Source: Sphyrna mokarran
Taxonomy: Eukaryota
DNA: 64,000 bases
Direction of reading: 5' to 3'
Assembly: GCA_024679065.1 (NCBI GenBank)
Contig: JAGIQG010000048.1
Location: 62,001-126,000, forward strand
Shown piece after piece: positions 1,127-38,658 of the stretch. The notes under the pieces are model-generated. The model ran no database searches and was not told where the DNA came from. It saw only the letters and a program-made list of their open reading frames with translations. A program made the position numbers and the translations under genes. Every line of letters begins with the position of its first letter. Position 1 is the first letter of the stretch.

Positions 1127-1165
1127 TGTCCTTGTACAGTTCCAGCCCTGGTTCCTCTCGCTGTG
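1127..1165 (-). other. VH 23-spacer RSS (minus cluster)
   Basis: Reads CACAGCG-23 nt-ACAAGGACA on the minus strand directly after the YYCARD codons. Confidence 0.92.
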
Positions 1166-1470
1166 GTCTCTTGCACAGTAATAGATGGCGGTGTCTTCAA
1201 TACTTAGACGCGCCATCTCCAAAGAGAAGATGTTGTTTGAAGTGTCTTTGGACGCCGTAAATCGGCCCTGAATTACGGGGGCGTACGCGTTACTGGATGA
1301 ACTTTTGTAGCTAACCAGCCACTCCAGTCCCTGTCCGGGAACCTGCCGGATCCAGCCCATCCAATAGCTGCCAAGGTTAAAGCCGCTGGTTTTACAGGTC
1401 AGTTTCAGGGAGGCTCCGGGACGGCCGGTCTCTGCCTCTTTCTGGGTCAACACAACCTCCGACTGGACAC
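1166..1470 (-). CDS. IGHV: Ig heavy-chain variable exon (VH), minus cluster, germline and open
   Basis: [53 protein letters not shown]...[11 protein letters not shown] with canonical V-domain Cys/Trp/YYC; AG acceptor at 1472-1471. Confidence 0.97.
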
Positions 1471-1595
1471 CTGTAAATAAAAAATCAAAAATTCTAAGGG
1501 TTAATCCTGGTGGAATGATTCTGGAGCATTCCAGAGATAGACTAACATTGAGACAGTAAAATGAGAGTCTTGGACAATGAAAATAAACTACTCAC

Positions 1596-1641
1596 CGGAT
1601 AAGAAAGTCAGCAACAAACTGAGACAAATCGCCGACCTCAT
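1596..1641 (-). CDS. IGHV: VH leader exon, minus cluster (MRSAICLSLLLTFLS)
   Basis: ATG at 1641, hydrophobic signal peptide, phase-1 GTGAGT donor, 125-bp intron to the V exon. Confidence 0.93.
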
Positions 1642-1730
1642 CTTTCTGGTGATTTGGGGGAAATGGTTGTGTCAGGAACTCAGTGAACAAACCAGCTCCC
1701 GGGCTGTTGGATTGCGGTGCCGGTGAGCGG

Positions 1731-1740
1731 TATTTAAATA
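1731..1740 (-). promoter_or_regulatory. TATA-like box of the minus VH promoter
   Basis: TATTTAAATA about 90 bp upstream of the leader ATG, preceded by a GC-rich block. Confidence 0.65.
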
Positions 1741-2647
1741 GCCGGTAGAAGGGGACGGCTTTCCGGGCACCGCCTGTTGATTCCCGGCTGGAGGCGGCGC
1801 CTGGATCCACCTTCCACACCCCCAGATAGAATGGACTCCCCAGATTGACAAGAATTCATACTCAAATGGACATTTGATCTGTGTCGGGCTATTTGTTTGG
1901 CTGAATCTGTTCATGGATTATTCCTGATGGTGATATTACAATTCATCATTTATTTATTAAAATGACCAATTCCGTTGTAAATACGGTGATTTTATTACCC
2001 CGCCCACAACAAGAAAACAAATCGAAAAATGATGGAATCACATTTGGGGAAATTAGACAATTTTGCAACAATTCCGTGCCTCTGCCACATTGGGATAATA
2101 AAACACAATTTATCCGAAGAAATAGCGTCGATTTCTGGAACTAAATGTGTGGAATATACAAAGTGATTGTATTTCCAGTGTGGATTCGGGTTTGAAGATG
2201 AGAAACAGCTCACACAGTATTTTCCTTGTATTTTTTTTCAAACTGTCCCAATCTGGAAGACAGCCCTCTGAAAATAATATGAATTCCTGAGAATTATATA
2301 ATTAATTGACAGAGAAACATAACATTAAATTGATTTTTGACTGAGAAGTGAATGAATTGGAATGCACACGAAGATCATTAAAGTTCTCCTTCAGCATCCA
2401 AATCATTGCAGCTCATTCTTTTGGCCACCGGCTGTCTAACATTCGCTGGTATCAGGAACACACATTGTACATTGCACAATGTCACAAGAATAAATGTTTT
2501 ATCTTCCATTCAAGCAGCTTATGAAATGATCATTTCTCCACTCATTGGCAACTACGAGAGGAACTCTTTAATAACAGAAATCAGCTTATACTGTACAATA
2601 AAACACGGTGCAAATCAGCTACAGGAGATGCTGCTGTTTTAATAGGG

Positions 2648-2929
2648 GTCATGATGTAAAGATGCCAGCGTTGGATTGGGGTAGTAAGAACTCAGTAAGA
2701 ATTTAGCAACACCAATTATTAATCCAACCGATTTATTTGATACTAAATCCGCGAGCTTTCAACACTCTTGTGTCTTCCTCAGGCAAGTGCAGTGTTCTGG
2801 TGTGTTCTGCAGTGTTCTGACCAGAACACTGCACTTGCCTGAGGAAGACACAAGAGTGTTGAAAGCTCGCGGATTTACTATCAAATAAATTGGTTGGATT
2901 AATAATTGGTGTTGCTAAATTCTTACTGA
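2648..2929. mobile_element. Penelope-like terminal-repeat insertion forming a hairpin (arms 2689-2801 / 2820-2932), with a 12-bp flanking direct repeat
   Basis: 113-bp inverted arms with 2 mismatches; GTTTTAATAGGG at 2636-2647 and 2930-2941; each arm carries CTGAGGA-stem-GAAAGCTC followed by AATAAA. Confidence 0.7.
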
Positions 2930-5900
2930 GTTTTAATAGGGTGCAGAACTTTCACAATATTACAGGAATCGCCGTTGTTCATGTCAGTTTTATGTTGCTG
3001 GTTTAATATTTCAATTCACTGGGGAACTGTTACCATCAACATCTCTCTCTCTCTCATTTCATGATGTGGTTAATACACATTAATTAATAGAATGAAATTT
3101 ACTTGGAAACTATACAATTGGAAAAAAAAGGTGACTTTATTGTTTTGTAATACTATTTACTCACATAACGAACAGGGCATTGAATGAAAATGCTTGATTA
3201 GAATGATTACCATTTTCTTGAGGGAATGAAACATTTATTATTAAAATGTCTGAATCCGGTTTTGTCCATTCAGGTTCACGCTAATCTGTGCCACGCAGTA
3301 TTTGGCAGCAATCCAGGCTGCTTTCAGATACTCAGTTATTGACAGGAAGCATCTGGGAGGGTTTGTGCAGTAGATCAAAGATCTGTTTCCTCAGTACTGA
3401 CCGCTTGGCTGCAAGTCAACTTGAAACTCTTCACGTTGTCAGTGTGGACTATTTATAAACAAATCTACCCAGCAACAGTGCGGGGGGGCACTTGAATTTT
3501 TGGAAGTTATAAATCTAGATGATGTGTTGCCATCTCTAAAGAAGGGATTAATATACACCTTCTTTGGCACCTTATTAATAACAGTGATGATTTATACATG
3601 AGGAGATTGTGATGGACGGATAGAAAGAATCACAGGCAGATGGAAAAGTGGCTCACAGAGAGCTTATATGTTGTTATATTTGAGCATGCACATTTATATT
3701 TTATTTCCTTTTATCTTTCCCTCGGATGTTTGGTTGGAAAGACCGACACTTTTTGCCTTTCCCAAATTCCCCTAAATTGATTGTTTTTCTGGGACACTTT
3801 CGAAGATATTAAAGAGTTAGCTATTTCACTCTCAGCCTGGATTTACATCCTTGTGAGGGAATGTAAGCAATGGCAGATTTCCTCCATTGGGGAATAAGGG
3901 GGAGGTTCTAGTCCACATTTATCAATAGAATTCAAAATCTACCTGCGGGAATGGCCCGACTTAAATCCCTGTCCTCACATCATTGGCCTGGGCCTCTGGA
4001 TCACCGGATCAATTAAATTAATATCATGTCACCGTCGACACAGACAATATATGTGTGACTGTGTTGACGCAGGAAGGAATGATATTTGAATGCCCCATGG
4101 ATAAATGCCTGTTGGATGCCTGAATATTTTGATTGAGGAAATATTGATCGATGGTACTGAATGATGCTGTTCTACATTTCCATGTTTGTGTTTGACTGCT
4201 TCATAAATTGAAAGAACTCCTTCATTCAATTTGTGTCCGTCTAATGCTTTCACTCCTTCCAGAGTGTCTGGGTGAAATCCATCCCGAGTTTCTCGGGAGT
4301 TTGCAAGCTGATCCTCACGAAGAGAAGGAGGAGATGGTCCTGGGGCTCAGATGGTTCATTTCTCTGCTGATGTTGAATCTTCGTATCCAAGACAGGAAGA
4401 AGGAGCATCATGTAGTTGAGGAGGGATGACTGTACTGTACAAAATACTGACTCTTTCATCGAATCAATCAACATACCCTCACCCAAATTAGTGAAGGCAA
4501 CAGGGCGAAAAGTAAATACGGCAACAACGGAAATATTTGTGAAACTCACTGGCCAACTACAGGTGTGACATTACTTCCCAAAACAGTGAAATAATGAATC
4601 GGAATTTAAAGATTCGGTAACTTCACATGAGGTACAGGTGACTCCATTTATATCATCACTTTGAAACCCACCCAGCTTTGTATCAGTACTTTCTGTGTGA
4701 TGATGAGGTGCTGACTTGTCAATGAAGTGCAGAGGCTGCTGGTTCATTCTCCTCCATCTGAATTAATTCCATTCCCCACTGAATTCTGGGACGGATTTTA
4801 TTCCTTGGTGGCAAAAAAGCCAATATATTGTCTATAAGTTTTAATACCAATAAATGATACGAAGCAAAGTGCAATTATACAGAAGGAAATACTGAAAATG
4901 AACAGAAAATACTGGATTATCTCAATAACATCTGTGGAGGCAGAACAGATCCTTTGTTTCAAATCTGGATGACGCTTCGGCAGAGAATTCCTGATGCTTT
5001 GGAGACACAATCATTGTGTCAGAAAAGCCAGATAAATTTCTGTGAGATGGGAATAACAGAAATAGTAGATACTATTTCAGACAAACACAAGCTGCATCAA
5101 TTCACAGAGTGATCCCAAATATCAGAACAAATTTCTTCATCCTAACCTAATCAACAACTCAATCACGAACTATATCCTTAAAAAAATCCTAATCCCTATC
5201 CACTCACATCATTTCTCAATTTCATTACTCTCTTCAATTTCCTCCAAATAAAAAAAATCTCACTGACTGGAAACTTTGGTTCTATTCTCTCTCCACAGAT
5301 GCTATCAGACCCGTTGAGATTTTCCAACATTCATTATTTTTGTTTGAGTTTCCAGAATCTGCAGTATTTTGCTTTGATCAAACTGATGAACATAATTGGT
5401 GATCTAATTGTATGAATTGATGATAACTGGAGAATTGGAACAACCTCGCTTATAAATTCCTCTCCAAGATACTCACAAGCCCCACTTGGACCAATCCTTT
5501 ACTAACGCTGCCTCGGAATCCGGGGGAATCCTCCCTAAGAGCACTGTCGGTGTACCTACACTGCAGGTTCTGCAGCAATTGAATAAGGCGGCTCCCCACC
5601 AGCTTGCCGAATGCAGCTGGCAATGGGGAATAAGTGGGGGCCTCGACAACATCGCCTTCCGACTTTAAAGTCATTTTAAATATACTCCTCTTTGTGTATG
5701 AATGAGAGCTGATGAATGAAATGATTAAATTGCAAACAGATTGTAATTGGTGAAAAGAATTACTCTCTTTCTGAACTTTATTTTGACATTCTCCTTATTT
5801 GCTCCAGGATCATTAATTACTCGGCGCTGTCTCAGTTCATGCTAAGAAGTTCCTATATCAGTAAAACTGTGTGTGTGAGACACTGTCTCAGTTTTATTCC

Positions 5901-8061
5901 CCTTGGCATTGTCATTTTTCAATATGTTTCATTCACGGGATCTGGGTGTCATTGGGATTTGACATTTGACCACCCCCCACTCGGCACTAACTCACTTCTA
6001 TTTTCTTGTATCAGGCCCCCGTTTATATTAAAATAAGTCTGGCTCTGTTAATACTCTGCTGGACCAGAGCTCAGTTTACATTGCACACGGCATTCTCTCT
6101 GGTTATGTATACTTGATACTGACCCTGTATTTCTCTCACTAGACGGGGTCAATTTAGTTCCTGCACTTAACTACGCCTCTCTTTGAATTATGTTGGTTTT
6201 ACTCCACTGTTTTGTGAGAAAAACAAATCATATGTTGGGATAAAAAAGATTGCTATCAGGCAAGATGCAGAACCAGGCATATTGGTTCACCAGTATTTTA
6301 TTGTGCTGTATTTTGCTTTTCTTTTGTTTTTCATTGACAGTGCACAAGACTTGATATCCATTTTCAATGCAGTCAGCAGAAGTAGATTTCAGATATCGCT
6401 TCTTCTTTTCCCCTGTTCAAAACCTGATAGAGTTTGCATTTGTAGAAGGATGCAGAGATTTGTGTTCTGCCAGCTAGTTTCATCATTACTGCCCTTGACC
6501 AGTGCAATAAAAACTGAGCCCATGTCCCAATGCAATAAAAACATGGAGACGGTCAATTACAGAAGTAAAACTGCATCTAGTTTGATACAAACAGAGACAG
6601 ATCTAAAATAATATAAACACAATTAACATCTAGTTTAATATAAACAGAAACATAAACCAGAACAGTGTCTAATTTAGTACAGATAATACATCCAATTTAC
6701 TGTGTGTAGAGACTTAAAATTCTACGTGCAAGATAAAAAGGGTCTAGTGGATGTGGCTTATCATATAAGCTGACACAGGCTACATTTACTGTAATATAAA
6801 GAGACTGGTTCAATCCCCATGAAATTTGTAGAGACAGTTGACTGTCCCATTGAAAACTTACAGGACAGGAGTAACACGGGGTTAGCTGCGGAATTTCCCC
6901 TCTGCTCTGGCAAATGAATAACTCCCAAAGCAGGAATAGCATGATTTGGATGCAAAGTGAATCGCCTTCAATTCAAACATTCCAAGAACAGTCTACTGTC
7001 TATAAACAGAGTGAAACTCCGTCTACAAATCTGTTCAAACAATATTAAGGCAGAAAGGGCATGGACGCTCTTCTATGTAAAAACTCTCCTGCTCTCTCCC
7101 TTCAGAGATTCAGGAGGCAGGTTTCAATTAGCGTTAGGAATAGGGGAAAGAGCCGCCTGCACAGTTCCACAAAACACACCCAGGCCAGGTACGGCAGAGA
7201 TTAGATACGGATTAAATCTTCCTTGACAAAGATGCATCAAACGTCCATAAGCCAAATACAATGAGTTGAGATGCAGAGTAAATATTCCTCGACTCTGTCC
7301 GGTCAAATACTCCAAGGACAGGGACAGCACTGGCTAAATATAGGGAAAAGTTCCACATTGAATCCTTACCACCAGGTTAGACGCAGAAGAAAATGTATCA
7401 AGTATTTCAAGATCATGGATTTCTCAAGAGATCTGTTTGAGTAATTCTCAGTCATAGATTGCAATTTATTGAATTACATTATTTTAGAAGCCTGTAACTC
7501 TGGCTGAGAGAGGACATTGGGCTGACATGGACTTTATGCTGTGGAGTTAAGACAATGAACCATTTTGGAGAGACAGGACACAGACAGGAGAAAGACAGAG
7601 ATAGAGATGAAACACGGGGAGATTTACAGGAACACATTTGCTGTGTCATTACATTTAGGATCAGAGGGATTATTCCTTAATTCTGAACATAGGTATCATC
7701 ATGATGTTTTTTTCCTCACATAACTGATGAAGAAATGATGTTGAAAACAATCCTCACTGGAATCCGTTGATTGATTTGCATGGTTGTCTCTATTTCTGGG
7801 CTGTGTTGGTGGGGAAATATTTGCTGTGTTTTTATCAGTCAACAATCTAATTCGGAATTTCTATTTCTGTATTTATTTACATAAATACCTCAGTGTTTAC
7901 AATGAAATGTCCGTGACAACAAAACCAGATAAACCGTCACTTATTGATCAGTTTCAATTCAAAATTGTGGTTTATTTTAAGAATTTTAACGGTTGGTTCA
8001 AAATGAATCGAAACTTTTTGAACATTTATAACACCAGTTCTGATGTCACAATTAATTCATT

Positions 8062-8690
8062 TACCAGGCAACATCCTGGTAAACCTCCTCTGCACCCTCT
8101 CCAATGCCTCCACATCTTTCTTATAATGCGGGGACCAGAACTGCACACAATACTCCAAGTGCGGCCGCACTAGAGTTTTGTAGAGTTGCAACATGACATT
8201 GCGGCTCCGAAATTCAATCCCCCTACCAATAAAAGCTAAGACTCCATATGCCTTCTTAACAACCTTATCGACTTGACTGCCTTCTTTCAGGGATCTATGC
8301 ACATATACACCAAGATCCCTCTGTTCATCAACACTATTAAGAATCCACCATTAGCCCTATACTCTACACATTTATTATTCCTGCCAAAGTGCATTACCTC
8401 ACACTTTTCCACATTAAGCTCCATTTGCCACCTCTCGGCCCAGCTCTGCAACTTGTCCAAGTCACTCTGTAAACTAAAACACACCTCTTCACTATCTACC
8501 ACACCACCAACTTTAGTATCATCTGCAAATTTACTGATCCATCCCTCAATACCCTCATCCAGATCATTTATAAAAATTACAACAGCAGGGGCCCCAAAAC
8601 AGACCCCTGAGGCACACCACTTGTCACCGAACTCCACGATGAATATCTCCCATCAACCACCACCCTCTGTCTTCTATCTGCTAGCCAAAA
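8062..8690 (-). mobile_element. CR1 LINE reverse-transcriptase fragment (part of the fold-back duplicate)
   Basis: ORF fragments with [25 protein letters not shown] and [19 protein letters not shown]. Confidence 0.92.
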
Positions 8691-9339: not shown

Positions 9340-9630
9340 TCATGTCACACTATCTGTAACCCCCACGACTTGCCTGGGTTAGCAAAAAACCTCACTTACT
9401 GTGCTGTCTGGAGACAGTACACATCTCTCTAATCTGTGCTCAGTGCTCCTTCCACTCACATTGTCAGCCACTTTAAGACTTGAATAGCAGGTGAGGTGTA
9501 AGGATTCACATTCTAATCAGCAATCTGTAACTGTCTATGCTGATATGTGTGCTATTGCAGACCAGAACACCTCATTCGCCTGATGAAGGCACAAACACCG
9601 AAAGCTAGCAAGTTTACTATGAAATAAATC
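9340..9630 (+). mobile_element. Penelope-like element 3' end with a hammerhead-like motif (9580-9607)
   Basis: Begins MSHYL* (mirror copy reads DLSFMSHYL*, like the C-terminus of vertebrate Penelope ORFs); CTGATGA...CCGAAAGCTA followed by AATAAA. Confidence 0.65.
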
Positions 9631-9649
9631 AGAATGACATTTATTTGGA

Positions 9650-10008
9650 AGTTAGAACATAGAACATTACAGCGCAGTACAGGCCCTTCGGCCCTCGATG
9701 TTGCGCCGACCAATGGAACCAATTTTATGACCCTCTATCCTAAAGTATTCCAATGCTATCCATCTGCCTATCCACTGACCATTTGAACGCCCTTAAACTT
9801 GGTGAGTCCACAACTGCTGTAGGCAGGGCATTCCATGCCCTTACCACCCTCTGAGTAAAGAACCCACCTGTAACATCTGTCCTAGAACTACCACCCCTTA
9901 ATTTAAAGCTATGTCCCCTCGTGTTAGCTTTCTCCATCCGAGGAAAAATGCTCTCACTATCCACCCTATCTAACCCTCTGATCATCTTATACACCTCAAT
10001 TAGATCAC
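9650..10008 (-). mobile_element. CR1 LINE 3' end
   Basis: GDLIEVYKMIRGLDRVD...TRGHSFKL...FFTQRVVRAWNALP; TTCTATG-type tail at about 9652-9667. Confidence 0.92.
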
Positions 10009-10549
10009 CAAATGGATCTACACAAATGGATCGATCCAATTTACCCATTTCTGTTACTGTTTAATCACAATACAGTCCCTGAAAATATTGCTTGGAGTGA
10101 ATACCATTTAAAACGTGTCTTTATTGTGGGAATCAAGTATTTATTGTGGGACTGGTTAAGTCCCATTTTATCCCTACATGTCCACGTTAATCCGTCCTAC
10201 GCAGTATTTGGCTCCAGTCCAATTTGCTCCCAAATACGCCAAGATATTTACAGGAAGCATCCGATGCTGTTTGTTCAGTAAGTCGAAAATCTGTTTCCTC
10301 AGTGCTGAGCGATTGGCTGCAATCCAACTTCAAACTCTCAGCATTGTCAATGGAGCCTATTTCTGAACAAATCTGCCTAGTAACAGTACTGGAGCTAACT
10401 TAATGATTTTTTTAAATCTGGAAAGCTGATGCATGCTTTCCATTTCCTTGGGAAAAGAAAGGTATCTCGATTCTCTGGCACCTTGTTAGTAACAATGATG
10501 ATTTCCCCAACCCAATACAACACTGGGATGGGAAATAATTACCGGCAAA

Positions 10550-11611
10550 TTTTGGCTAGCAGATAGAAGACAGAGGGTGGTGGTTGATGGGAGATATTCA
10601 TCGTGGAGTTCGGTGACAAGTGGTGTACCTCAGGGGTCTGTTTTGGGGCCCCTGCTGTTTGTAATTTTTTTAAATGATCTGGATGAGGGTATTGAAGGAT
10701 GGATTAGTAAATTTGCGGATGACACTAAAGTCGGAGGAGTGGTAGATAGTGAAGAGGGGTGTTATAGTTTGCAGAGAGACTTGGACAAGTTGCAGAGCTG
10801 GGCCGAGAGTTGGCAAATGGAGTTTAATGTGGAAAAGTGTGAGGTAATGCACTATGGCAGGAATAATAAATGTGTAGAGTATAGGACTAATGGTAGGATT
10901 CTTAGTAGTGTTGATGAACAGAGGGATTTTGGTGTGTATGTGCATAGATCCCTGAAAGTAAGCAGTCAAGTCGAGAAGGTTGTTAAGAAGGCATATGGAG
11001 TCTTAGCTTTTATTGGTAGGGGGACTGAATTTCGGAGCCGCAACGTCATGTTGCAACTGTACAAAACTCTAGTGCGGCCGCACTTGAGTATTGTGTGCAG
11101 TTCTGGTCCCCGCATTATAAGAAAGATGTGGAGGCATTGGAGAAGGTACAGAGGAGGTTTACCAGGATGTTGCCTGGTATGGAGGGCAGGTCTTATGAAG
11201 AGAGGCTGAGAGATTTGAGGTTGTTTCGTTAGAAAGAAGGCGGCTAAGAGGAGACCTTATTGAAACATATAAGATGATTAGAGGTTTAGATAGGGTGGAC
11301 AGTGATAGCATTTTCCCTAGGATGGAGAAAGCTAGCACGAGGGGACACAGCTTTAAATTAAGGGGTGATAGTTATAGGACGGATATCAGAGGTAGGTTCT
11401 TTACCCAAAGGGTGGTTCGGGAGTGGAATGCCCTGCCTGCCGCAGTTGTAGATGCGCCAAGTTTGGTGGCGTTTAAGAGGTTAGTTGATAAGTATATGGA
11501 AGAGAAGGGATTGGTTCAGTTTGGAGGGTCATTGCTTTTTATATTGGTCGGCGCAACATCGAAGGCTGAAGGGCCTGTTCTGTGCTGTAATGTTCTATGT
11601 TCTATGTTCTA
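10550..11611 (+). mobile_element. 5'-truncated CR1 LINE (RT C-terminal half, 3' UTR and tail), frameshifted
   Basis: [22 protein letters not shown], later FFTQRVVREWNALP; (TGTTCTA)3 tail at 11591-11611. Confidence 0.95.
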
Positions 11612-11865
11612 AATTGTGAGAGTTGATTCAGAGAGGTGATATATCTTATACTGTATAAACATTGTTGTGTTTTATTTCATTTTATTCTTCCAGGGGACGC
11701 GGGAGTCACTGGAAAGAACACCATTTGTTTCCTGTGCTAAATTCCTTTTCAGCTGAGTGGTGTGTGAGGGCATCTTAGAAGGCATTGTCTAGTTATGTAC
11801 ATGGCGGCCCATCTTGAGTTACAGCCCGCTGAGACATGTAGGGATGGCAGATTTCCTTCACTGGG

Positions 11866-12587
11866 GAATCAGGAGGTGGAGAGGGACCTGGGGATCCTTG
11901 TGCACAAATCACAAAAACCCAGTCTGCAGCTACAGCAGGTGATCAAGAAGGTGAATGGGATGGTGGCCTTTATTGCGAGGGGGATAGAATATAAAAGCAG
12001 GGAGGTCTTGCTGTAACTGTACAGGGCACTGGTGAGGCAGCAACTGGAGAACTGCGTGCAGTTTTGGTCCCCGCGTTTGTGTAAGGATATATTGGCCTTG
12101 GAGGGAGTACAGAGAACATTCACCAGGCTGATATCGGAGATGAGGGGGTTAGTTTATGAGGGGAGATTGAATAGACTGGGTCTGTACTCATTAGAGAAGG
12201 TTGAGGGGGGATCTTATAGAGACTTACAAGATAATGAAGGGGATGGATAGGGTAGAGGTAGAGAGATTCTTCCTGCTTAGAAAGGAAACCAGAATTCGAG
12301 GGCACAGCCTCAAAATAAGGGGGGGTGGTTTAGATCAGAGTTGAGGAAGGAACTTCTTCACTCAGAGGATGGTGAATCTGGAATTCTCTGCCTGCTAAAG
12401 TGGCAGAGGCTCCCTCGCTGAATATATTTAAGTCACGGGTAGATAGGTTTCTGATAGACAAGGGAATTACGGGGAGAAAGCAGGAAAGTGGAACTGATCC
12501 ACTTCAGATCAGCCATGATCTTATTGAATGGTGGGACAGGCTCGAGGGGCTGGATGGCCGACTCCTGCTCCTATTTCTGATGTTCTA
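11866..12587 (+). mobile_element. CR1 LINE 3' fragment (second subfamily)
   Basis: [32 protein letters not shown]; 3' UTR ending ACTCCTGCTCCTATTTC. Confidence 0.9.
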
Positions 12588-13770: not shown

Positions 13771-14013
13771 AATTAAAACGTCAATATATCAATGTTTATG
13801 AATGGATGATGACTAAAATTATGCATCTTTGAGAATGGATGGCAATTGATGGAAATAAATACCAACTTTCTGAACATTTATGACCTTCGCACTTGTAGTT
13901 CTCCTTTCGCTCTGGACTCGGATCAATATCAGTTGTTCCTCGATGAGACCAGGACCCTATTTAAACTGTACTTTCTGAGTTATAACTGTGCTGAACTATA
14001 TTTCAGTTAATAT

Positions 14014-14300
14014 GGGTGGCACGTTGGCACAATGATTATCCCTGCTGTTTGACATCACCAGGGACCTGGCTTCACTTCCCAGCTATGGTGACTGTCTGTG
14101 TGGAGTCTGCCTGTTCTCCCTGTGGCTGCTGGTTCTATCCCCGTCCCCCGGTTTCCTCCCACAGTCCGAAGGACGTGCTGTTTAGGTGAATTTCGGCCAT
14201 GCTACACTCTCGCTTAAATACTACCCCAGCAGCTGAGTAGGGGATTTTTACAGTAACTTAATTACAGTGTTAATGTCGGCCTAATGACACTGATAAATAA
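14014..14300 (+). mobile_element. tRNA-derived HE1/V-type SINE (mirror at about 27363-27649, minus)
   Basis: GGGTGGCACGTTGGCACAATG head; central TGTGTGGAGT...CCGGTTTCCTCCCACAGTCC domain. Confidence 0.75.
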
Positions 14301-14469
14301 GCTTCAAAATTTCAATCTGACTGCGTCTCCATTCCAACTGCATCAAAACATTTATGTGCGTGTGTACTAAACTGAAACAAAATTCTTGCATTACAAGTGT
14401 TTCGGTAACAGTATTGCTTGAACAGTTCATGAAATCAAATGCTCTCGATCTTGTTTTAGTTGGAGTTTG

Positions 14470-14900
14470 CTGTATGAGGAACGGGTTGAGGATTCTGGTT
14501 CTGTACTCGTTGGGAGTTTAGAAGGATGGCGGGGGGATCTTATTGAAACTTCCAGGATCCTGCGAGGCCCTGGATAGAGCGGACACAGAGAGGATGTTTC
14601 CACTAGTAGGAACAACTCGAACCAGAGAGGGAACAACCTCAGGCTAAAGGGACGATCCTTTAAAACAGAGATGGGGAGGAATTTGTTCAGCCAGAGAGTG
14701 GGGAATGTGTGGAACTCTTTGCTGCAGAGGAGGCCGGGTCACTGAGTGTCTTTAAGACAGAGATAGATAGGTTCCTGATTAATAAGGGGATCAGGGAAAA
14801 GGCAGGAGAATGGGGGATGAGAAAAATATCAGCCATGATTGAATGGGGGAGCAGACTCGATTGGCCGAGTGGCCTCATTCTGCTCCTATGTCTTATGGTA
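14470..14900 (+). mobile_element. CR1 LINE 3' fragment (mirror at about 26762-27190, minus)
   Basis: GDLIET...FSQRVGNVWNSL...FKTEIDRFL and CR1-type 3' UTR. Confidence 0.85.
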
Positions 14901-15280
14901 TGATCTTAAAGCTCCATCAGTCCATGTATGTGTTTATTTGACCCTGACTCTGCCCACATTTCATGCGACCAGGTCACTGTTATTAATGCACTGGATTTTG
15001 CATTTGTTTGAATTCTAGGCACATTAATCTACGGTTCTGTGAGAATAAGTTACTATGTTGTGCTAAAAACAATTGTATTCAGCAGGATCCTGAAACAGAA
15101 ACTATTGCATCGACAGTGCAGCCAGCGCAGAATTGGATTTCTAGAGATCACTTGCTCCAGTGCCCAAGACCAGTCTCCATCCGAGAGAGTGGTGTCTGTA
15201 GGAGATCACAGAGAAATGTGTTCCCCAGCCATTTTTCACATTACTGCGCCTTGTCTAGAGCAGTAATAACTGAGTCGTAA

Positions 15281-24177: not shown

Positions 24178-24400
24178 GACGGCGCGGTGGCACAGTGAGA
24201 TGGCATGGTGACACACTGCTATCTTAGAGCTCCAGAGCCCTGGGTTCGATTCCCAGCGTGGGGTCCCCTGTCTGTGCAGAGTTCACACATTCGACACAAG
24301 TTGGCAAGGTTTCCTCCAGATGCTCCGGTTTCCTCCCACAGTGCAAAGATGTAACGGCCGATTGCTAAATTGTTCCTTAGTGCCTTAGAATGTACAGGTC
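24178..24400 (+). mobile_element. tRNA-derived HE1/V-type SINE spanning the inner end of the right arm
   Basis: A-box-like TGGCACAGTG, B-box GGTTCGATTCC, core GCTCCGGTTTCCTCCCACAG. Confidence 0.82.
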
Positions 24401-27400: not shown

Positions 27401-28356
27401 ATTAAGTTACTGTAAAAATCCCCTACTCGGCTGTTGGGGTAGAATTTAAGCGAGAGTGTAGCATGGCCGAAATTCACCTAAACAGCACGTCCTTCGGACT
27501 GTGGGAGGAAACCGGGGGACGGGGATAGAACCAGCAGCCACAGGGAGAACAGGCAGACTCCACACAGACAGTCACCATAGCTGGGAAGTGAAGCCAGGTC
27601 CCTGGTGATGTCAAACAGCAGTGATAATCATTGTGCCAACGTGCCACCCATATTAACTGAAATATAGTTCAGCACATTTATACCTCAGAAAGTACGGTTT
27701 AAATAGGGTCCTGGTCTCATCGAGGAACAACTGATATTGAGCCGAGTCCAGAGCGAAAGGAGAACTACAAGTGCAAAGGTCATATATGTTCAGAAAGTTG
27801 GTGTTTATTTCCATCAATTGCCATCCATTCTCAAAGATGCATAATTTTAGTCATCATCCACTCCCTCCAAGGCCAATATATCCTTACACAAACGCGGGGA
27901 CCAAAACTGCACACAGTTCTCCAGTTGCTGCCTCACCAGTGCCCTGTACAGTTACAGCAAGACCTCCCTGCTTTTATATTCTATCCCCCTCGCCATAAAG
28001 GCCACCATCCCATTCACCTTCTTGATCACCTGCTGTAGCTGCAGACTGGGTTTTTGTGATTTGTGCACAAGGATCCCCAGGTCCCTCTCCACCTCCTGAT
28101 TCCCCAGTGAAGGAAATCTGCCGTCCCTACATGTCTCAGCGGGCTGTAACTCAAGATGGGTCACCATGTACATAACTAGACAATGCCTTCTAAGATGCCC
28201 TCACACACCACTCAGCTGAAAAGGAATTTAGCACAGGAAACAAATGGTGTTCTTTCCAGTGACTCCCGCGTCCCCTGGAAGAATAAAGTGAAATAAAACA
28301 CAACAATGTTTATACAGTATAAGATATATCACCTCTCTGAATCAACTCTCACAATT

Positions 28357-29420
28357 TAGAACATAGAACATAGAACATTACAGCACAGAACAGGCCCTTC
28401 AGCCTTCGATGTTGCGCCGACCAATATGAAAAGCAATGACCCTCCAAACTAAACCAATCCCTTCTCTTCCATTTACTTATCAACTAACCTCTTAAACGCC
28501 ACCAAACTTGGCGCATCTACAACTGCGGCAGGCAGGGCATTCCACTCCCGAACCACCCTTTGGGTAAAGTACCTACCTCTGATATCCGTCCTATAACTAT
28601 CACCCCTTAATTTAAAGCTGTGTCCCCTTGTGCTAGCTTTCTCCATCCTAGGAAAAATGCTATCACTGTCCACCCTATCTAAACCTCTAATCATCTTATA
28701 TGTTTCGATTAGGTCCCCTCTTAGCCGCCTCCTTTCTAACGAAAACAACCTCAAATCCCTCAACCTCTCTTCATAAGACCTGCCCCTCCATACCAGGCAA
28801 CATCCTGGTAAACCTCCTCTGTACCCTCTCCAATGCCTCCACATCTTTCTTATAATGTGGGGACCAGAACTGCACACAATACTCCAAGTGCGGCCGCACT
28901 AGAGTTTTGTACGTTGCAACATGACGTTGCGGCTCCGAAATTCAATCCCCCTACCAATAAAAGCTAAGACTCCATATGCCTTCTTAACAACCTTATCGAC
29001 TTGACCGCCTACTTTCAGGGATCTATGCACATATACACCAAAATCCCTCTGTTCATCAACACTATTAAGAGTCCTACCATTAGCCCTATACTCTACACAT
29101 TTGTTATTCCTGCCAAAGTGAATTACCTCACACTTTTCCACATTAAACTCCATTTGCCACCTCTCGCCCAGCTCTGCAACTTGTCCAAGTCTCTCTGCAA
29201 ACTATAACACCCCTCTTCACTATCTACCACTCCTCCGACTTTGGTGTCATCCGCAAATTTACTAATCCATCCTTCAATACCTCATCCAGATCATTTATAA
29301 AAATTACAAACAGCAGGGGCCCCAAAACAGACCCCTGATGTACACCACTTGTCACCGAACTCCACGATGAATATCTCCCATCAACCACCACCCTCTGTCT
29401 TCTATCTGCTAGCCAAAATT
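28357..29420 (-). mobile_element. 5'-truncated CR1 LINE (mirror of 10550-11611)
   Basis: [14 protein letters not shown] and [20 protein letters not shown]; (TAGAACA)n tail at 28357. Confidence 0.93.
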
Positions 29421-29951
29421 TGCCCGTAATTATTTCCCATCCCAGTGTTGTATTGGGTTGGGGAAATCATCATTGTTACTAACAAGGTGCCAGAGAATCG
29501 GGATACCTTTCTTTTCCCAAGGAAATGGAAAGCATGCATCAGCTTTCCAGATTTAAAAAAATCATTAAGTTAGCTCCAGTACTAGGCAGATTTGTTCAGA
29601 AATAGGCTCCATTGACAATGCTGAGAGTTTGAAGTTGGATTGCAGCCAATCGCTCAGCACTGAGGAAACAGATTTTCGACTTACTGAACAAACAGCATCG
29701 GATGCTTCTTGTAAATATCTTGGCGTATTTGGGAGCAAATTGGACTGGAGCCAAATACTGCGTAGGACGGATTAACGTGGACATGTAGGGATAAAATGGG
29801 ACTTAACCAGTCCCACAATAAATACTTGATTCCCACAATAAAGACACGTTTTAAATGGTATTCACTCCAAGCAATATTTTCAGGGACTGTACTGTGATTA
29901 AACAGTAACAGAAATGGGTAAATTGGATCGATCCATTTGTGTAGATCCATT

Positions 29952-30310
29952 TGGTGATCTAATTGAGGTGTATAAGATGATCAGAGGGTTCGGTAGGGTG
30001 GATAGTGAGAGCATTTTTCCTCGGATGGAGAAAGCTAGCACGAGGGGGCATAGCTTTAAATTAAGGGGTGGTAGTTATAGGACAGATGTTAGAGGTGGGT
30101 TCTTTACTCAGAGGGTGGTAAGGGCATGGAATGCCCTGCCTACAGCAGTTGTGGACTCACCAAGTTTAAGGGCGTTCAAATGGTCAGTGGATAGGCAGAT
30201 GGATAGCATGGGAATACTTTAGGATAGAGGGTCATAAAATTGGTTCCATTGGTCGGCGCAACATCGAGGGCCGAAGGGCCTGTACTGCGCTGTAATGTTC
30301 TATGTTCTAA
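29952..30310 (+). mobile_element. CR1 LINE 3' end (mirror of 9650-10008)
   Basis: ORF 29914-30222 GDLIEVYKMIRG...WNALP; tail TGTTCTATGTTCTA. Confidence 0.92.
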
Positions 30311-30329
30311 CTTCCAAATAAATGTCATT

Positions 30330-30632
30330 CTGATTTATTTCATAGTAAACTTGCTAGCTTTCGGTGTTTGTGCCTTCGTCAGGTGAATGAGGTGTTCTGG
30401 TCTGCAATAGCACACATATCAGCATAGACAGTTACAGATTGCTGATTAGAATGTGAATCCTTACATCTAACCTGCTATTCAAGTCTTAAAGTGGCTGACA
30501 ATGTGAGTGGAAGGAGCACTGCGCACAGATTAGAGAGATGTGTATTGTCTCCAGACAGCACAGTAAGTGAGGTTTTTTGCTAACCCAGGCAAGTCGTGGG
30601 GGTTACAGATAGTGTGACATGAAGCTAAGATC
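30330..30632 (-). mobile_element. Penelope-like element 3' end with a hammerhead-like motif (mirror of 9340-9630)
   Basis: Minus strand reads DLSFMSHYL*, then CTGACGA...CCGAAAGCTA and AATAAA. Confidence 0.65.
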
Positions 30633-33600
30633 GTAATAACATGGAATCATAGAATCCCTACAGTCAACAGGGAGGTCATTCACTGCAATAATCCTGCAGC
30701 GGGCTTTCCAGCAGAGCATCCCACCGAGGCAAATCTTCATTAGATCCAGACAACCACACATATTCATAGGCTAATCCACCGAACCTACACATTATTGGAC
30801 ACTAACAGGAAATTTAGCAAAGACAACTTACACTGGATCTGGGAAGGATGCTCTGCTGGGTAACTGGTGCAGGCTTGATGAATGTTCTCCTTCTGCACTG
30901 TAGGGATTCTATGATTCTACTTTGCGCATCATTGGAAGCTAAGGGGCAATTTATCACAGCCAATCCACCTAAACTGCAAATCCTGGGACTGTGAAAGGAA
31001 ACTGGAGCACTCGGAGGATCCCACATGGATATGGATAGAATTTGAAAACCATACACAGTCACCCAGTGTTGGAATCGATCCCGCTTCCCTGTCGCCTGTG
31101 AGGCAGCAAAGCTAATTGCATCTCTTAGTGATAACCACATTAGATTTTTTTACTCTTCCTTCCCGTGAGTTTGATCAATATTTGTGACAGAAATACTTCA
31201 GACATCAGATTTTTTTAAAATTTAACTTGTCTAATTTAAACAGATCAAATCCTCAATCAAATTAACATTTAGTGGAATATCTGGCTGTTCACAAATGCTT
31301 TATTAATTGTGACATCAGAACTTTCAGAACTAATTCTGAAATGGAATGTATCATTTTCTTTGAATTAAATGCAACTGGTGTTATAAATGTTCAAAAAGTT
31401 TCGATTCATTTTGAACCAACCGTTAAAATTCTTAAAATAAACCACAATTTTGAATTGAAACTGATCAATAAGTAATGGTTTATCTGGTTTTGTTGTCACG
31501 GACATTTCATTGTAAACACTGAGGTATTTATGTAAATAAATATGAAAATAGAAATTCCGAATTAGATTGTTGACTGATAAAAACACAGCAAATATTTCCC
31601 CACCAACACAGCCCAGAAATAGAGACAACCATGCAAATCAATCAACGGATTCCAGTGAGGATTGTTTTCAACATTATTTCTTCATCAGTTATGTGAGGAA
31701 AAAAACATCATGATGATATCTATGTTCAGAATTAAGGAATAATCCCTCTGATCCTAAATGTAATGACACAGCAAATGTGTTCCTGTAAATCTCCCTGTGT
31801 TTCATCTCTATCTCTGTCTTTCTCCTGTCTGTGTCCTGTCTCTCCAAGATGGTTCATTGTCTTAACTCCACAGCATAAAGTCCATGTCAGCCCAATGTCT
31901 TCTCTCAGCCAGAGTTACAGGCTTCTAAAATAATGTAATTCAATAAATTGCAATCTGTGACTGAGAATTACTCAAACAGATCTCTTGAGAAATCCATGAT
32001 CTTGAAATACTTGATACATTTTCTTCTGCGTCTAACCTGGTGGTAAGGATTCAATGTGGAACTTTTCCCTATATTTAGCCGGTGCTGTCCCTGTCCTTGG
32101 AGTATTTGACCGGACAGAGTAGAGGAATATTTACTCTGCGTCTCAACTCATTGTATTTGGCTTATGGACGTTTGATGCATCTTTGTCAAGGAAGATTTAA
32201 TCCGTATCTAATCTCTGCCGTACCTGGCCTGGGTGTGTTTTGTGGAACTGTGCAGGCGGCTCTTTCCCCTATTCCTAACGCTAATTGAAACCTGCCTCCT
32301 GAATCTCTGAAGGGAGAGAGCAGGAGAGTTTTTACATAGAAGAACGTCCATGCCCTTTCTGCCTTAGTATTGTTTGAACAGATTTGTAGACGGAGTTTCA
32401 CTCTGTTTCTAGACAGTAGACTGTTCTTGGAATGTTTGAATCGAAGGCGATTCACTTTGCATCCAAATCATGCTATTCTGCTTTGGGAGTTATTCATTTG
32501 CCAGAGCAGAGGGGAAATTCCGCAGCTAACCCCGTGTTACTCCTGTCCTGTAAGTTTTTGATGGGACAGTAAACTGTCTCTACAAATTTCATGGGGATTG
32601 AACCAGTCTCTTTATATTACAGTAAATGTAGCCTGTGTCAGCTTATATGATAAGCCACATCCACTAGACCCTTTTTATCTTGCACGTAGAATTTTAAGTC
32701 TCTACACATAGTAAATTGGATGTATTATCTGTACTAAATTAGACACTGTTCCGGTTTATTTTTCTGTTTATATTAAACTAGATGTTAATTGTGTTTATAT
32801 TATTTTAGATCTGTCTCTGTTTGTATCAAACTAGATGCAGTTTTACTTCTGTAATTGACCGTCTCCATGTTTTTATTGCATTGGGACATGGGCTCAGTGT
32901 TTATTGCACTGGTCAAGGGCAGTAATGATGAAACTAGCTGGCAGAACACAAATCTCTGCATCCTTCTACAAATGCAAACTCTATCAGGTTTTGAACAGTG
33001 GAAAAGAAGAAGCGATATCTGAAATCTACTTCTGCTGACTGCATTGAAAATGGATATCAAGTCTTGTGCACTGTCAATGAAAAACAAAAGAAAAGCAAAT
33101 TACAGCACAATAAAATACTGGTGAACCAATATGCCTGGTTCTGCATCTTGCCTGATAGCAATCTTTTTTATCCCAACATATGATTTGTTTTTCTCACAAA
33201 ACAGTGGAATAAAACCAACATAATTCAAAGAGAGGCGTAGTTAAGTGCAGGAACTAAATTGACCCCGTCTAGTGAGAGAAATACAGGGTCAGTATCAAGT
33301 ATACATAACCAGAGAGAATGCCGTGTGCAATGTAAACTGAGCTCTGGTCCAGCAGAGTATTAACAGAGCCAGACTTATTTTAATATAAACGGGGGCCTGA
33401 TACAAGAAAATAGAAGTGAGTTAGTGCCGAGTCGGGGGGTGGTCAAATGTCAAATCCCAATGACACCCAGATCCCGTGAATGAAACATATTGAAAAATGA
33501 CAATGCCAAGGGAAATAAAACTGAGACAGTGTCTCACACACACAGTTTTACTGATATAGGAACTTCTTAGCATGAACTGAGACAACGCCGAGTAATTAAT

Positions 33601-36485
33601 GATCCTGGAGCAAATAAGGAGAATGTCAAAATAAAGTTCAGAAAGAGAGTAATTCTTTTCACCAATTACAATCTGTTTGCAATTTAATCATTTCATTCAT
33701 CAGCTCTCATTCATACATAAAGAGGAGTATATTTAAAATGACTTTAAAGTCGGAAGGCGATGTTGTCGAGGCCCCCACTTATTCCCCATTGCCAGCTGCA
33801 TTCGGCAAGCTGGTGGGGAGCCGCCTTATTCAATTGCTGCAGAACCTGCAGTGTAGGTACACCGACAGTGCTCTTAGGGAGGATTCCCCCCGGATTCCGA
33901 GGCAGCGTAAGTAAAGGATTGGTCCAAGTCGGGCTTGTGAGTATCTTGGAGAGGAATTTATAAGCGAGGTTGTTCCAATTCTCCAGTTATCATCAACTCA
34001 TACAATTAGATCACCAATTATGTTCATCAGTTTGATCAAAGCAAAATACTGCAGATTCTGGAAACTCAAACAAAAATAATGAATGTTGGAAAATCTCAAC
34101 GGGTCTGATAGCATCTGTGGAGAGAGAATAGAACCAAAGTTTCCAGTCAGTGAGATTTTTTTTTATTTGCAGGAAATTGAAGAGAGTAATGAAATTGAGA
34201 AATGATGTGAGTGGATAGGGATTAGGATTTTTTTAAGGATATAGTTCGTGATTGAGTTGTTGATTAGGTTAGGATGAAGAAATTTGTTCTGATATTTGGG
34301 ATCACTCTGTGAATTGATGCAGCTTGTGTTTGTCTGAAATAGTATCTACTATTTCTGTTATTCCCATCTCACAGGAAATTTATCTGGCTTTTCTGACACA
34401 ATGATTATGTCTCCAAAGCATCAAGAATTCTCTGCCGAAGCGTCATCCAGATTTGAAACAAAGGATCTGTTCTGCCTCCACAGATGTTACTGAGATAATG
34501 CAGTATTTTCTGTTCATTTTCGGTATTTCCTTCTGTATAATTGTACTTTGCTTCGTATCATTTATTGGTATTAAAACTTATAGACAATATATTGGCTTTT
34601 TTGTCACCAAGGAATAAAATCCGTCCCAGAATTCAGTGGGGAATGGAATTAATTCAGATGGAGGAGAATGAACCAGCAGCCTCTGCACTTCATTGACAAG
34701 TCAGCACCTCATCATCACACAGAAAGTACTGATACAAAGCTGGGTGGGTTTCAAAGTGATGATATAAATGGAGTCACCTGTACCTCATGTGAAGTTACCG
34801 AATCTTTAAATTCCGATTCATTATTTCACTGTTTTGGGAAGTAATGTCACACCTGTAGTTGGCCAGTGAGTTTCACAAATATTTCTGTTGTTGCCGTATT
34901 TACTTTTCGCCCTGTTGCCTTCACTAATTTGGGTGAGGCCATGTTGATTGATTCGATGAAAGAGTCAGTATTTTGTACAGTACAATCATCCCTCCTCAAC
35001 TACATGATGCTCCTTCTTCCTGTCTTGGATACGAAGATTCAACATCAGCAGAGAAATGAACCATCTGAGCCCCAGGACCATCTCCTCCTTCTCTTCGTGA
35101 GGATCAGCTTGCAAACTCCCGAGAAACTCGGGATGGATTTCACCCAGACACTCTGGAAGGAGTGAAAGCATTAGACAGACACAAATTGAATGAAGGAGTT
35201 CTTTCAATTTATGAAGCAGTCAAACACAAACATGGAAATGTAGAACAGCATCATTCAGTACCATCGATCAATATTTCCTCAATCAAAATATTCAGGCATC
35301 CAACAGGCATTTATCCATGGGGCATTCAAATATCATTCCTTCCTGCGTCAACACAGTCACATATATACTGTTTGTGTCGACGGTGACATGATATTAATTT
35401 AATTGATCCGGTGATCCAGAGGCCCAGGCCAATGATGTGAGGACAGGGATTTAAGTCGGGCCATGCCCGCAGGTAGATTTTGAATTCTATTGATAAATGT
35501 GGACTAGAACCTCCCCCTTATTCCCCAATGGAGGAAATCTGCCATTGCTTACATTCCCTCACAAGGATGTAAATCCAGGCTGAGAGTGAAATAGCTAACT
35601 CTTTAATATCTTCGAAAGTGTCCCAGAAAAACAATCAATTTAGGGGAATTTGGGAAAGGCAAAAAGTGTCGGTCTTTCCAACCAAACATCCCAGGGAAAG
35701 ATAAAAGGAAATATAATATAAATGTGCATGCTCAAATATAACAACATATAAGCTCTCTGTGAGCCACTTTTCCATCTGCCTGTGATTCTTTCTATCCTTC
35801 CATCACAATCTCCTCATGTATAAATCATCACTGTTATTAATAAGGTGCCAAAGAATGTGTATATTAATCCCTTCTTTAGAGATGGCAACACATCATCTCG
35901 ATTTATAACTTCCAAAAATTCAAGTGCCCCCCCGCACTGTTGCTGGGTAGATTTGTTTATAAATAGTCCACACTGACAACGTGAAGAGTTTCAAGTTGAC
36001 TTGCAGCCAAGCGGTCAGTACTGAGGAAACAAATCTTTGATCTACTGCACAAACCCGCCCAGATGCTTCCTGTCAATAACTGAGTATCTGACAGCAGCCT
36101 GGATTGCTGCCAAATACTGCGTGGCACAGATTAGCGTGAACCTGAATGGACAAAACCGGATTCAGACATTTTAATAATAAATGTTTCATTCCCTCAAGAA
36201 AATGGTAATCATTCTAATCAAGTATTTTCATTCAATGCCCTGTTCGTTATGTGAGTAAATAGTATCACTAAACAATAAAGTCACCTTTTTTTTCCAATTG
36301 TATAGTCTCCAGGTAAATTTCGTTCTATTAATTAATGTGTATTAACCACATCATGAAATGAGAGAGAGAGAGATGTTGATGGTAACAGTTCCCCAGTGAA
36401 TTGAAATATTAAACCAGCAACATAAAACTGACATGAACAACGGCGATTCCTGTAATATTGTGAAAGTTCTGCACCCTATTAAAAC

Positions 36486-36767
36486 TCAGTAAGAATTTAG
36501 CAACACCGATTATTAATGCAACCGATTTATTTGATAGTAAATCCGCGAGCTTTCAACACTCGTGTGTCTTCCTCAGGCAAGTGCAGTGTTCTGGTCAGAA
36601 CACTGCAGAACACACCAGAACACTGCACTTGCCTGAGGAAGACACAAGAGTGTTGAAAGCTCGCGGATTTAGTATCAAATAAATCGGTTGGATTAATAAT
36701 TGGTGTTGCTAAATTCTTACTGAGTTCTTACTACCCCAATCCAACGCTGGCATCTTTACATCATGAC
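36486..36767. mobile_element. Mirror copy of the Penelope-like hairpin insertion
   Basis: Reverse complement of 2648-2929; CCCTATTAAAAC repeats at 36474-36485 and 36768-36779. Confidence 0.7.
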
Positions 36768-37674
36768 CCCTATTAAAACAGCAGCATCTCCTGTAGCTGA
36801 TTTGCACCGTGTTTTATTGTACAGTATAAGCTGATTTCTGTTATTAAAGAGTTCCTCTCGTAGTTGCCAATGAGGGGAGAAATGATCATTTCATAAGCTG
36901 CTTGAATGGAAGATAAAACATTTATTCTTGTGACATTGTGCAATGTACAATGTGTGTTCCTGATACCAGCGAATGTTAGACAGCCGGTGGCCAATAGAAT
37001 GAGCTGCAATGATTTGGATGCTGACGGAGAACTTTAATGATCTTCGTGTGCATTCCAATTCATTCACTTCTCAGTCAAAAATCAATTTAATGTTATGTTT
37101 CTCTGTCAATTAATTATATAATTCTCAGGAATTCATATTATTTTCAGAGGGCTGTCTTCCAGATTGGGACAGTTTGAAAAAAAATACAAGGAAAATACTG
37201 TGTGAGCTGTTTCTCATCTTCAAACCTTAATCCACACTGGAAATACAATCACTTTGTATATTCCACACATTTAGTTCCAGAAATCGACGCTATTTCTTCG
37301 GATAAATTGTGTTTTATTATCCCAATGTGGCAGAGGCACGGAATTGTTGCAAAATTGTCTAATTTCCCCAAATGTGATTCCATCATTTTTCGATTTGTTT
37401 TCTTGTTGTGGGCGGGGTAATAAAATCCCCGTATTTACAACGGAATTGGTCATTTTAATAAATAAATGATGAATTGTAATATCACCATCAGGAATAATCC
37501 ATGAACAGATTCAGCCAAACAAATAGCCCGACACAGATCAAATGTCCATTTGAGTATGAATTCTTGTCAATCTGGGGAGTCCATTCTATCTGGGGGTGTG
37601 GAAGGTGGATCCAGGCGCCGCCTCCAGCAGGGAATCAACAGGCGGTGCCCGGAAAGCCGTCCCCTTCTACTGGC

Positions 37675-37684
37675 TATTTAAATA
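37675..37684 (+). promoter_or_regulatory. TATA-like box of the plus VH promoter
   Basis: TATTTAAATA about 90 bp upstream of ATG 37774. Confidence 0.65.
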
Positions 37685-37773
37685 CCGCTCACCGGCACCG
37701 CAATCCAACAGCCCGGGAGCTGGTTTGTTCACTGAGTTCCTGACACAACCATTTCCCCCAAATCACCAGAAAG

Positions 37774-37819
37774 ATGAGGTCGGCGATTTGTCTCAGTTTA
37801 TTGCTGACTTTCTTATCCG
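37774..37819 (+). CDS. IGHV: VH leader exon (MRSAICLSLLLTFLS)
   Basis: ATG 37774, signal-peptide character, phase-1 donor GTGAGT at 37820. Confidence 0.93.
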
Positions 37820-37944
37820 GTGAGTAGTTTATTTTCATTGTCCAAGACTCTCATTTTACTGTCTCAATGTTAGTCTATCTCTGGAATGCTCCAGAATCAT
37901 TCCACCAGGATTAACCCTTAGAATTTTTGATTTTTTATTTACAG

Positions 37945-38249
37945 GTGTCCAGTCGGAGGTTGTGTTGACCCAGAAAGAGGCAGAGACCGTCCGTCCCGGA
38001 GCATCCCTGAAACTGACCTGTAAAACCAGCGGCTTTAACCTTGGCGACTATTACATGGCTTGGATCCGGCAGGTTCCCGGACAGGGACTGGAGTGGCTGG
38101 TTAGCTACTATAGTTCATCCAGCAACGATTACGCCCCCGGAATTGAGGGCCGATTTACGGCGTCCAAAGACACTTCAAACAACATCTTCTCTTTGGAGAT
38201 GTTGCGTCTAAGGATTGAAGACACCGCCATCTATTACTGTGCAAGAGAC
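37945..38249 (+). CDS. IGHV: Ig heavy-chain variable exon (VH), germline and open
   Basis: TTTACAG acceptor; [49 protein letters not shown]...[11 protein letters not shown]. Confidence 0.97.
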
Positions 38250-38288
38250 CACAGCGAGAGGAACCAGGGCTGGAACTGTACAAGGACA
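38250..38288 (+). other. VH 23-spacer RSS
   Basis: CACAGCG 38250-38256, 23 nt, ACAAGGACA 38280-38288. Confidence 0.92.
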
Positions 38289-38642
38289 ACTGCAGAGGGA
38301 ATTCAGCATCTTCCTCCGTAACCTGAAGGTCATCGTCTGCTTCAAATGCAATATGATCGACTGTGGTCAGAACCAAACTATAATCGCCTTTAAATAAAGT
38401 AACACAAAGCATTTCACAGTAAAACTTCACAAACTCACGGATATACCTGGTGAGCTTTTCACCGACTTTATATTCATTGGAGTGTCAGCAGGAACGACAC
38501 TCCAATATGTTAGTCTTCTTAATATTTCTGACAGACTGTGTTATAGAAACATTTCGCATTAGAGCAAAACTAATGGTCCATTTGAAGTGAATATTGAACA
38601 GTAGGACTGAATGCAGTTTTTGTATGGCTTTGTGTCACTGTG

Positions 38643-38658
38643 ATACTATATAGTGGGT
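38643..38658 (+). other. IGHD: IgH diversity segment D1 (ATACTATATAGTGGGT), 5' 12-RSS 38615-38642 and 3' 22-RSS 38659-38696
   Basis: AGTTTTTGT-12-CACTGTG; CACTGTG-22-ACAAAAACC. Confidence 0.94.

Follow-up and report, generated by a model that had tools for sequence, protein, structure and literature searches.

Do shark immunoglobulin M (IgM) gene clusters that lie close together in opposite orientation swap V segments by inversion, or does each cluster rearrange on its own? This question is raised by a stretch of 64,000 nucleotides from Sphyrna mokarran (assembly GCA_024679065.1, contig JAGIQG010000048.1, positions 62,001 to 126,000; hereafter the window, G000:C1082:62001-126000 in our numbering), which shows units 2 and 3 of an array of IgM miniclusters. 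An initial annotation of the window had proposed that the signals of this pair permit V segments to be exchanged by inversion without loss. We consider it likely that the eight near-identical, alternating miniclusters of the array each rearrange alone by short deletions, that inversion between clusters is rare, and that V, D and C types have been mixed by gene conversion in the germline.

An alternating array of IgM miniclusters

The 436-kb contig carries eight complete IgM miniclusters in strict alternation (+ - + - + - + -). All eight have the make-up leader (L)-V-D1-D2-J-CH1-4-transmembrane (TM), with open C and first TM exon frames. The units themselves are ordinary IgM miniclusters: a single VH segment, two D segments and a single JH segment, spaced by about 400 bp, lie within about 2 kb in a common orientation; their recombination signal sequences (RSSs) follow the 12/23-compatible order V23, 12-D1-22, 12-D2-12, 23-J; and each unit has its own C-mu with four C1-set exons, a secretory tail and a TM exon (in the right unit of the window the first TM exon was found and the second was not located). 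In the literature searched, which left out most subscription papers, we found neither an account of shark IgM clusters that alternate in this way nor one of heavy-chain clusters joined to each other by inversion.

Over 26,066 shared columns, the eight units differ pairwise by 0.91–1.83%. The two units of the window differ by 1.47%, which is only rank 4 among the 28 pairs (units 6 and 7 are closest, at 0.91%), and a recent private duplication of units 2 and 3 was therefore rejected. Their V segments lie 37 kb apart, the shortest V-V distance among the 11 head-to-head pairs listed; head-to-head pairs of the alternating array span 37–54 kb. The two arms are inverted copies that can be aligned over 8 kb:

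1-8039, minus strand: left arm of the inverted duplication, 98.4% identical to 31373-39412
31373-39412, plus strand: right arm of the inverted duplication
9340-12108 with 27860-30622, and 13803-17313 with 24334-27860: further arm blocks

Of about 8,046 columns, 129 differ between the arms, and each arm has insertions of its own. Differences are 4.5-fold enriched in V relative to the rest (18 of 294 bases), and 10 of the 12 changed codons alter the protein, a pattern consistent with functional genes under diversifying selection.

Signal geometry and the probable frequency of cross-cluster joins

Against the RSS consensus, a scan returned five 12-RSS matches with at most two mismatches, where 0.06 were expected (0 of 100 shuffles). 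The V 23-RSSs have four mismatches to this consensus, were missed at a threshold of three, and were identified by their position at the V end. The V nonamer ACAAGGACA, three off consensus, occurs in all eight units of the array; most units on a second contig (C994) have ACAAGAACA. The segments and signals concerned are the following (those of D and of the right J from the RSS scan, the left V signal from the scan and its position at the V end):

1-31, plus strand: left J 23-RSS, nonamer and spacer (J match at G000:C1082:61938-62032; heptamer and J coding sequence just left of the window)
357-425, minus strand: left D2 (385-397), with 3' 12-RSS (357-384) and 5' 12-RSS (398-425, heptamer 398-404)
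718-800, minus strand: left D1 (756-772), with 3' 22-RSS (718-755) and 5' 12-RSS (773-800, heptamer 773-779)
1127-1165, minus strand: left VH 23-RSS, heptamer CACAGCG (1159-1165), nonamer ACAAGGACA to its left
1166-1469, minus strand: left VH exon, open V-set domain, unique among the eight units; cryptic heptamer 1174-1180
1596-1641, minus strand: left leader exon
37774-37819, plus strand: right leader exon
37946-38249, plus strand: right VH exon, open V-set domain, identical in units 3, 6 and 7; cryptic heptamer 38235-38241
38250-38288, plus strand: right VH 23-RSS (heptamer 38250-38256), identical in all eight units
38615-38696, plus strand: right D1 (38643-38658), with 5' 12-RSS (38615-38642, heptamer 38636-38642) and 3' 22-RSS (38659-38696)
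38988-39056, plus strand: right D2 (39016-39028) with two 12-RSSs; 5' 12-RSS 38988-39015 (heptamer 39009-39015)
39382-39468, plus strand: right J (39421-39468) with 23-RSS (39382-39420)
37858-38811, plus strand: tract without differences among units 3, 6 and 7, a likely gene-conversion tract (37827-39039 for units 3 and 6)

The scan bore out the geometry on which the proposed swap depends. The left V 23-RSS and the 5' 12-RSSs of right D1 and right D2 all lie on the minus strand, and the mirror relation holds on the plus strand for the right V (38250-38256), left D1 (773-779) and left D2 (398-404). When all 12/23 pairs were enumerated, the pairing of either V with the D1 of the other unit proved inversional, over 37,477 bp. 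As had been predicted, a join of left V with right D1 would invert 1166-38642 and turn the right V, with its RSS, to face left D1; coordinate mapping places the heptamer of that V at 1552-1558 after the inversion. The logic of 12/23 inversion is valid, but the exchange is not uniformly lossless: only 10 of the 18 cross-pair pairings place the two signals in the same orientation, as in zebrafish immunoglobulin light chains (IgL), and would invert, whereas 8 would delete. Moreover, in the modelled inversion the right D1 12-RSS of the signal joint comes to lie at 1166-1172. It is then closer than left D1 to the moved V and may compete with left D1 for that V.

The inversion option is generic, because it is open to every pair of opposite units, whether these stand head-to-head or tail-to-tail. 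The shared RSS orientation is likewise forced by the 98.4% inverted duplication and is not a design that beats chance. The two-by-two combinatorics that had been envisaged gives way to 32 opposite-strand V-to-D1 options across eight units. In neither cluster is V inverted relative to its own J: the D1 of the same unit, only 393 bp from V, would be joined by deletion and is 95 times closer than the opposite D1. RAG would be expected to pair signals 360–400 bp apart overwhelmingly over those separated by 37.5 kb, so that under about 5% of joins would cross clusters.

The available figures for such joins come from the nurse shark. PMC2435157 reports 97 partial rearrangements that, one possible exception apart, stayed within the minilocus; of 58 thymic VDD-J clones, one looked cross-locus. 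It also describes one or few loci rearranged per B cell and carried to completion. We computed a 95% interval of 0.03–5.6% for the 1 in 97. For Sphyrna, no public protein more than 81% identical to the left V was found among 18 longer and 11 near-length matches, which included no rearranged chain of S. mokarran. The signals allow cross-cluster inversion, but any swapping of V segments in somatic cells is so far unproven and is probably minor.

An unlikely alternative is that the array acts as a proto-translocon, in which inversion could bring any V to a D of an opposite unit, or to the cryptic heptamer of a V already used there, without gene loss. Shark heavy chains would then use their V segments combinatorially and edit them, and the alternation would be kept by selection, because same-facing neighbours would delete each other. 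A reading in which regular inversional V-to-D joining (more than 5% of joins) makes the array a small combinatorial locus, in line with the initial annotation, is in our view quite unlikely. It can draw on the valid geometry, on a V-V distance that is a third of the nurse shark spacing, on divergent promoters that could open together, on the zebrafish IgL precedent over 81 kb (PMC3014032) and on the single possible cross-locus clone from nurse shark thymus (PMC2435157). It has to contend with the 95-fold closer local partner and with the eight deletional pairings. The V nonamer ACAAGGACA breaks the A-tract, and such breaks are reported to reduce paired-complex formation and synapsis with mouse RAG (PMC7337519); nor does it have the purine-A/T-purine motif described in PMC12711392. 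By analogy, the signal may be a poor partner for shark RAG as well.

The payoff would be small as well. Units 2 and 3 have the same J coding sequence, and their D segments are set apart by a single base in D2 and about three in D1, so that, with D ends trimmed on joining, little combinatorial gain is left. A second chance at rearrangement, which inversion had been thought to provide, already exists without it: a failed VDJ would leave no D 12-RSS for a new V, two clusters would give two tries with or without inversion, and a true second chance would arise only by replacement at the heptamer embedded in the used V.

The suggestion that the pair is self-marking was not borne out. The V motifs and D tags quoted for it are present, and the D tags are absent from 29 other loci fetched. 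Among the eight units only left V and left D1 are unique, whereas the other marks are common to several (right D1 tag in 3, right D2 tag in 5, right V in 3, left D2 tag in 2), right V and right D1 being identical in units 3, 6 and 7. V RSS spacers cannot serve as marks, the V RSSs being identical in all eight units. Left V on a right-type D1 would still report inversion, since its source is unit 3 or 7; right-type V on left D1 is ambiguous, since deletion from unit 6 gives it too.

Germline mosaicism and the remaining alternatives

Among pairs of the 535 informative sites, 18% are incompatible when the sites lie within 100 bp of each other, a share that climbs to 57% for sites more than 3 kb apart. 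Close-pair incompatibility was 0.33 against 0.55 after permutation, and none of 1000 permutations was as low. Substitution-free runs of 1160–1343 bp were never reached in 2000 simulations each; these lengths ignore insertions relative to unit 3, and the identity of units 3 and 7 truly ends near 38814-38847. Incompatibility that grows with distance, together with over-long identical tracts, is the pattern of an array subject to gene conversion or non-allelic exchange.

The nearest neighbours change along the unit: 3/6/7 in V; 1/3/6, 2/8 and 4/7 in D2; 1/6 in CH1; 2/8 in CH2; 1/6/7 in CH3; and 3/5 in CH4. The V-D1 block common to units 3, 6 and 7 sits on two D2 types and three CH1 types, and units 2 and 8 have D2 and CH2 in common with different V segments. 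Tract edges fall in the leader intron and the D spacers, away from coding ends. None of the eight units contains a pre-joined V-D or D-J, and the predicted signal joint linking 1165 to 38642 has no match in the assembly; a RAG-mediated swap in the germline was rejected on these three observations. The mosaic therefore likely reflects homologous gene conversion in the germline and not RAG. The exchange between arms that had been offered as another route to the swap finds its evidence here, in the form of germline conversion tracts among all eight units; a single crossover in the V-D spacer was rejected because reversion is seen at both ends of the 3/6/7 tract. Inverted repeats that undergo homologous exchange would account for the mosaic, and with neighbours in opposite orientation such exchange, or a stray V-to-D join, would invert DNA rather than delete clusters, which may help the array persist.

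Several points weigh against a reading of rare cross-cluster inversion and germline mixing. The cross-join rate is borrowed from nurse shark, whose loci lie at least 120 kb apart with orientation and linkage then unknown, and the screen there was directed at joins that left one subfamily rather than at joins of near-identical neighbours (PMC2435157). Two precedents indicate that long joins are possible: clusters of zebrafish IgL recombine with each other by inversion across 81 kb (PMC3014032), and in sharks V segments of IgH can be joined to TCR-delta D (review PMC6795676). Haplotype switching in the assembly could account for part of the mosaic. Finally, counting V-bearing units only (two CH4 matches without a V match were excluded), 18 of 24 neighbours within 130 kb face opposite ways genome-wide (p 0.011); a genome-wide bias was rejected because this figure is driven by the non-independent 7 of 7 neighbours on the array contig, and on C994 alone 11 of 17 close neighbours are opposite (p 0.17, not significant).

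Assembly artefacts from fold-back reads or mixed haplotypes are very unlikely as the source of the mosaic or of the head-to-head layout; for the layout, the initial annotation had itself raised the possibility. The contig has the size of an unplaced one and does consist almost wholly of repeats of 97–98.6% identity, including a 49-kb palindrome around a 1.1-kb centre, and the two arms are separated in part by a run of N. However, a fold-back would give identical arms, not 129 differing columns with independent insertions, and would not concentrate mostly amino-acid-changing differences in V. In four other copies the sequences on either side of the central N lie collinear, 134–167 bp apart; the head-to-head spacing recurs three times on the array contig with shared spacer sequence and eight times among the divergent C994 clusters; and all eight units differ pairwise, by 0.9–1.8%.

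VH replacement by inversion, in which an unrearranged opposite V would join the cryptic heptamer at the end of a used V after a failed VDJ, is highly improbable. Its substrate exists, namely a heptamer embedded at the 3' end of V and, in cis, a donor V that is unrearranged and has a 23-RSS: TACTGTG, the signal named for mammalian VH replacement (PMC3585286, PMC3918983), is embedded in all eight V exons, and by the pairing rules its orientation would make the join inversional. PMC3526766 discounts VH replacement in cartilaginous fish, whose gene layout it regards as unsuitable, an objection that the alternating layout removes. Yet no nonamer lies at 12 or 23 spacing from the embedded heptamer, whose presence needs no recombination role because it overlaps conserved Tyr-Cys codons, and a fresh cluster would be an easier rescue.

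The constant region of the right unit completes the window:

48452-48751, plus strand: C-mu CH1 exon, open
48964-49278, plus strand: C-mu CH2 exon, open
50684-50992, plus strand: C-mu CH3 exon, open
52041-52432, plus strand: C-mu CH4 and secretory tail, 95% identical to Triakis scyllium IgM
56121-56248, plus strand: first transmembrane exon, open

In this CH4, units 2, 3 and 5 have Pro instead of Leu two residues before the first Cys, and all eight units have Arg where Triakis IgM has Gly; such changes may affect folding. A self-inverted, hairpin-capable 254-bp element lies about 1 kb upstream of each leader (window 2685-2938 and 36477-36733), a reverse-transcriptase-like frame at 8290-8652 (minus strand) was judged by eye to be a LINE-type repeat with more copies in the inter-arm spacer, and a tandem repeat of about 56 bp with an inverted block (59445-62947) lies near the tail-to-tail centre of units 3 and 4. 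Further along the contig, units 6 and 7 form the 49-kb palindrome (G000:C1082:231987-331779; 98.6%, centre 1.1 kb), and the tail-to-tail gap of about 74 kb between units 7 and 8 (G000:C1082:327700-401900) holds nested inverted repeats unrelated to the IgM unit.

The genome contains 36 CH4-like matches. C994 carries 27 further VH-bearing units in mixed orientation (listed from several searches), one of them germline-joined: at G000:C994:7404999-7405400 (L066), J directly follows V with no RSS between. The V at G000:C994:9417661-9418409 (L063) has an in-frame TAG, a J RSS about 410 bp downstream and no clear D signals, and is possibly a partly joined pseudogene. CH4 matches of 96–97% at G000:C994:9130122 and 10861000 have no nearby V match (V-less or divergent units), and the same V protein in three distant units (G000:C994:9063722, 9366643, 10205826) suggests exchange or recent duplication on C994.

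Comparison with known systems

At the Igk locus, and in human IGK with its inverted distal copy, V segments in reverse orientation undergo inversional joining across long distances. The Sphyrna geometry is alike in this respect; there, however, many V segments share one J-C, whereas each Sphyrna V has its own D-D-J-C. Palindromic amplicons, such as those of the Y chromosome, combine long inverted arms, high identity and arm-to-arm gene conversion. The array has the same arms, identity and conversion tracts but differs in that exchange extends among all eight units and not mainly between facing arms (opposite-strand pairs differ by 1.59%, same-strand pairs by 1.65%).

A close match in gene content is the nurse shark IgM minicluster (VH-D1-D2-JH-C-mu; PMC2435157), with one V, two D and one J, 23 / 12-22 / 12-12 / 23 signals, four C exons, a secretory tail and TM. 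What sets Sphyrna apart from these loci, reported at least 120 kb apart (PMC2435157), is a strictly alternating set of eight copies less than 2% divergent with V segments 37–54 kb apart. Inversion between clusters is already known for zebrafish light chains (PMC3014032), where opposite polarity of V and target likewise lets a cross-cluster join invert and keep the intervening DNA. In zebrafish, however, V frequently lies reversed relative to the rest of its cluster, so that inversion is the usual route, and transcripts prove the join (PMC3014032), whereas the Sphyrna genes are heavy-chain genes with two D segments and a deletional partner at 393 bp, and their cross-cluster join is a prediction from the genome sequence. 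Inter-cluster isotype switching in sharks also combines a V and a C from different clusters, but it acts after VDJ joining and moves the whole VDJ (Zhu et al. 2012, as cited in reviews), so that a V and C mismatch cannot prove RAG inversion and only a mismatch of V with D or spacer can. The germline mosaic means that assigning shark transcripts to clusters needs the individual's own germline; otherwise inherited conversions mimic switching or cross-cluster joins.

Reviews state a rule of within-cluster rearrangement for shark Ig (PMC5192425, PMC4279169) and propose distance and same-direction layout as its reasons. Both reasons fall away for Sphyrna neighbours, which are close and opposite, and the rule is cleanly testable here, left V and left D1 being unique among the eight units and the D tags absent from the other loci fetched. 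This close, opposite-facing, conversion-shuffled array is therefore of moderate interest: exclusively within-cluster joining would point to chromatin-limited activation of one cluster, and cross-cluster joining, if true, would link cluster and translocon layouts.

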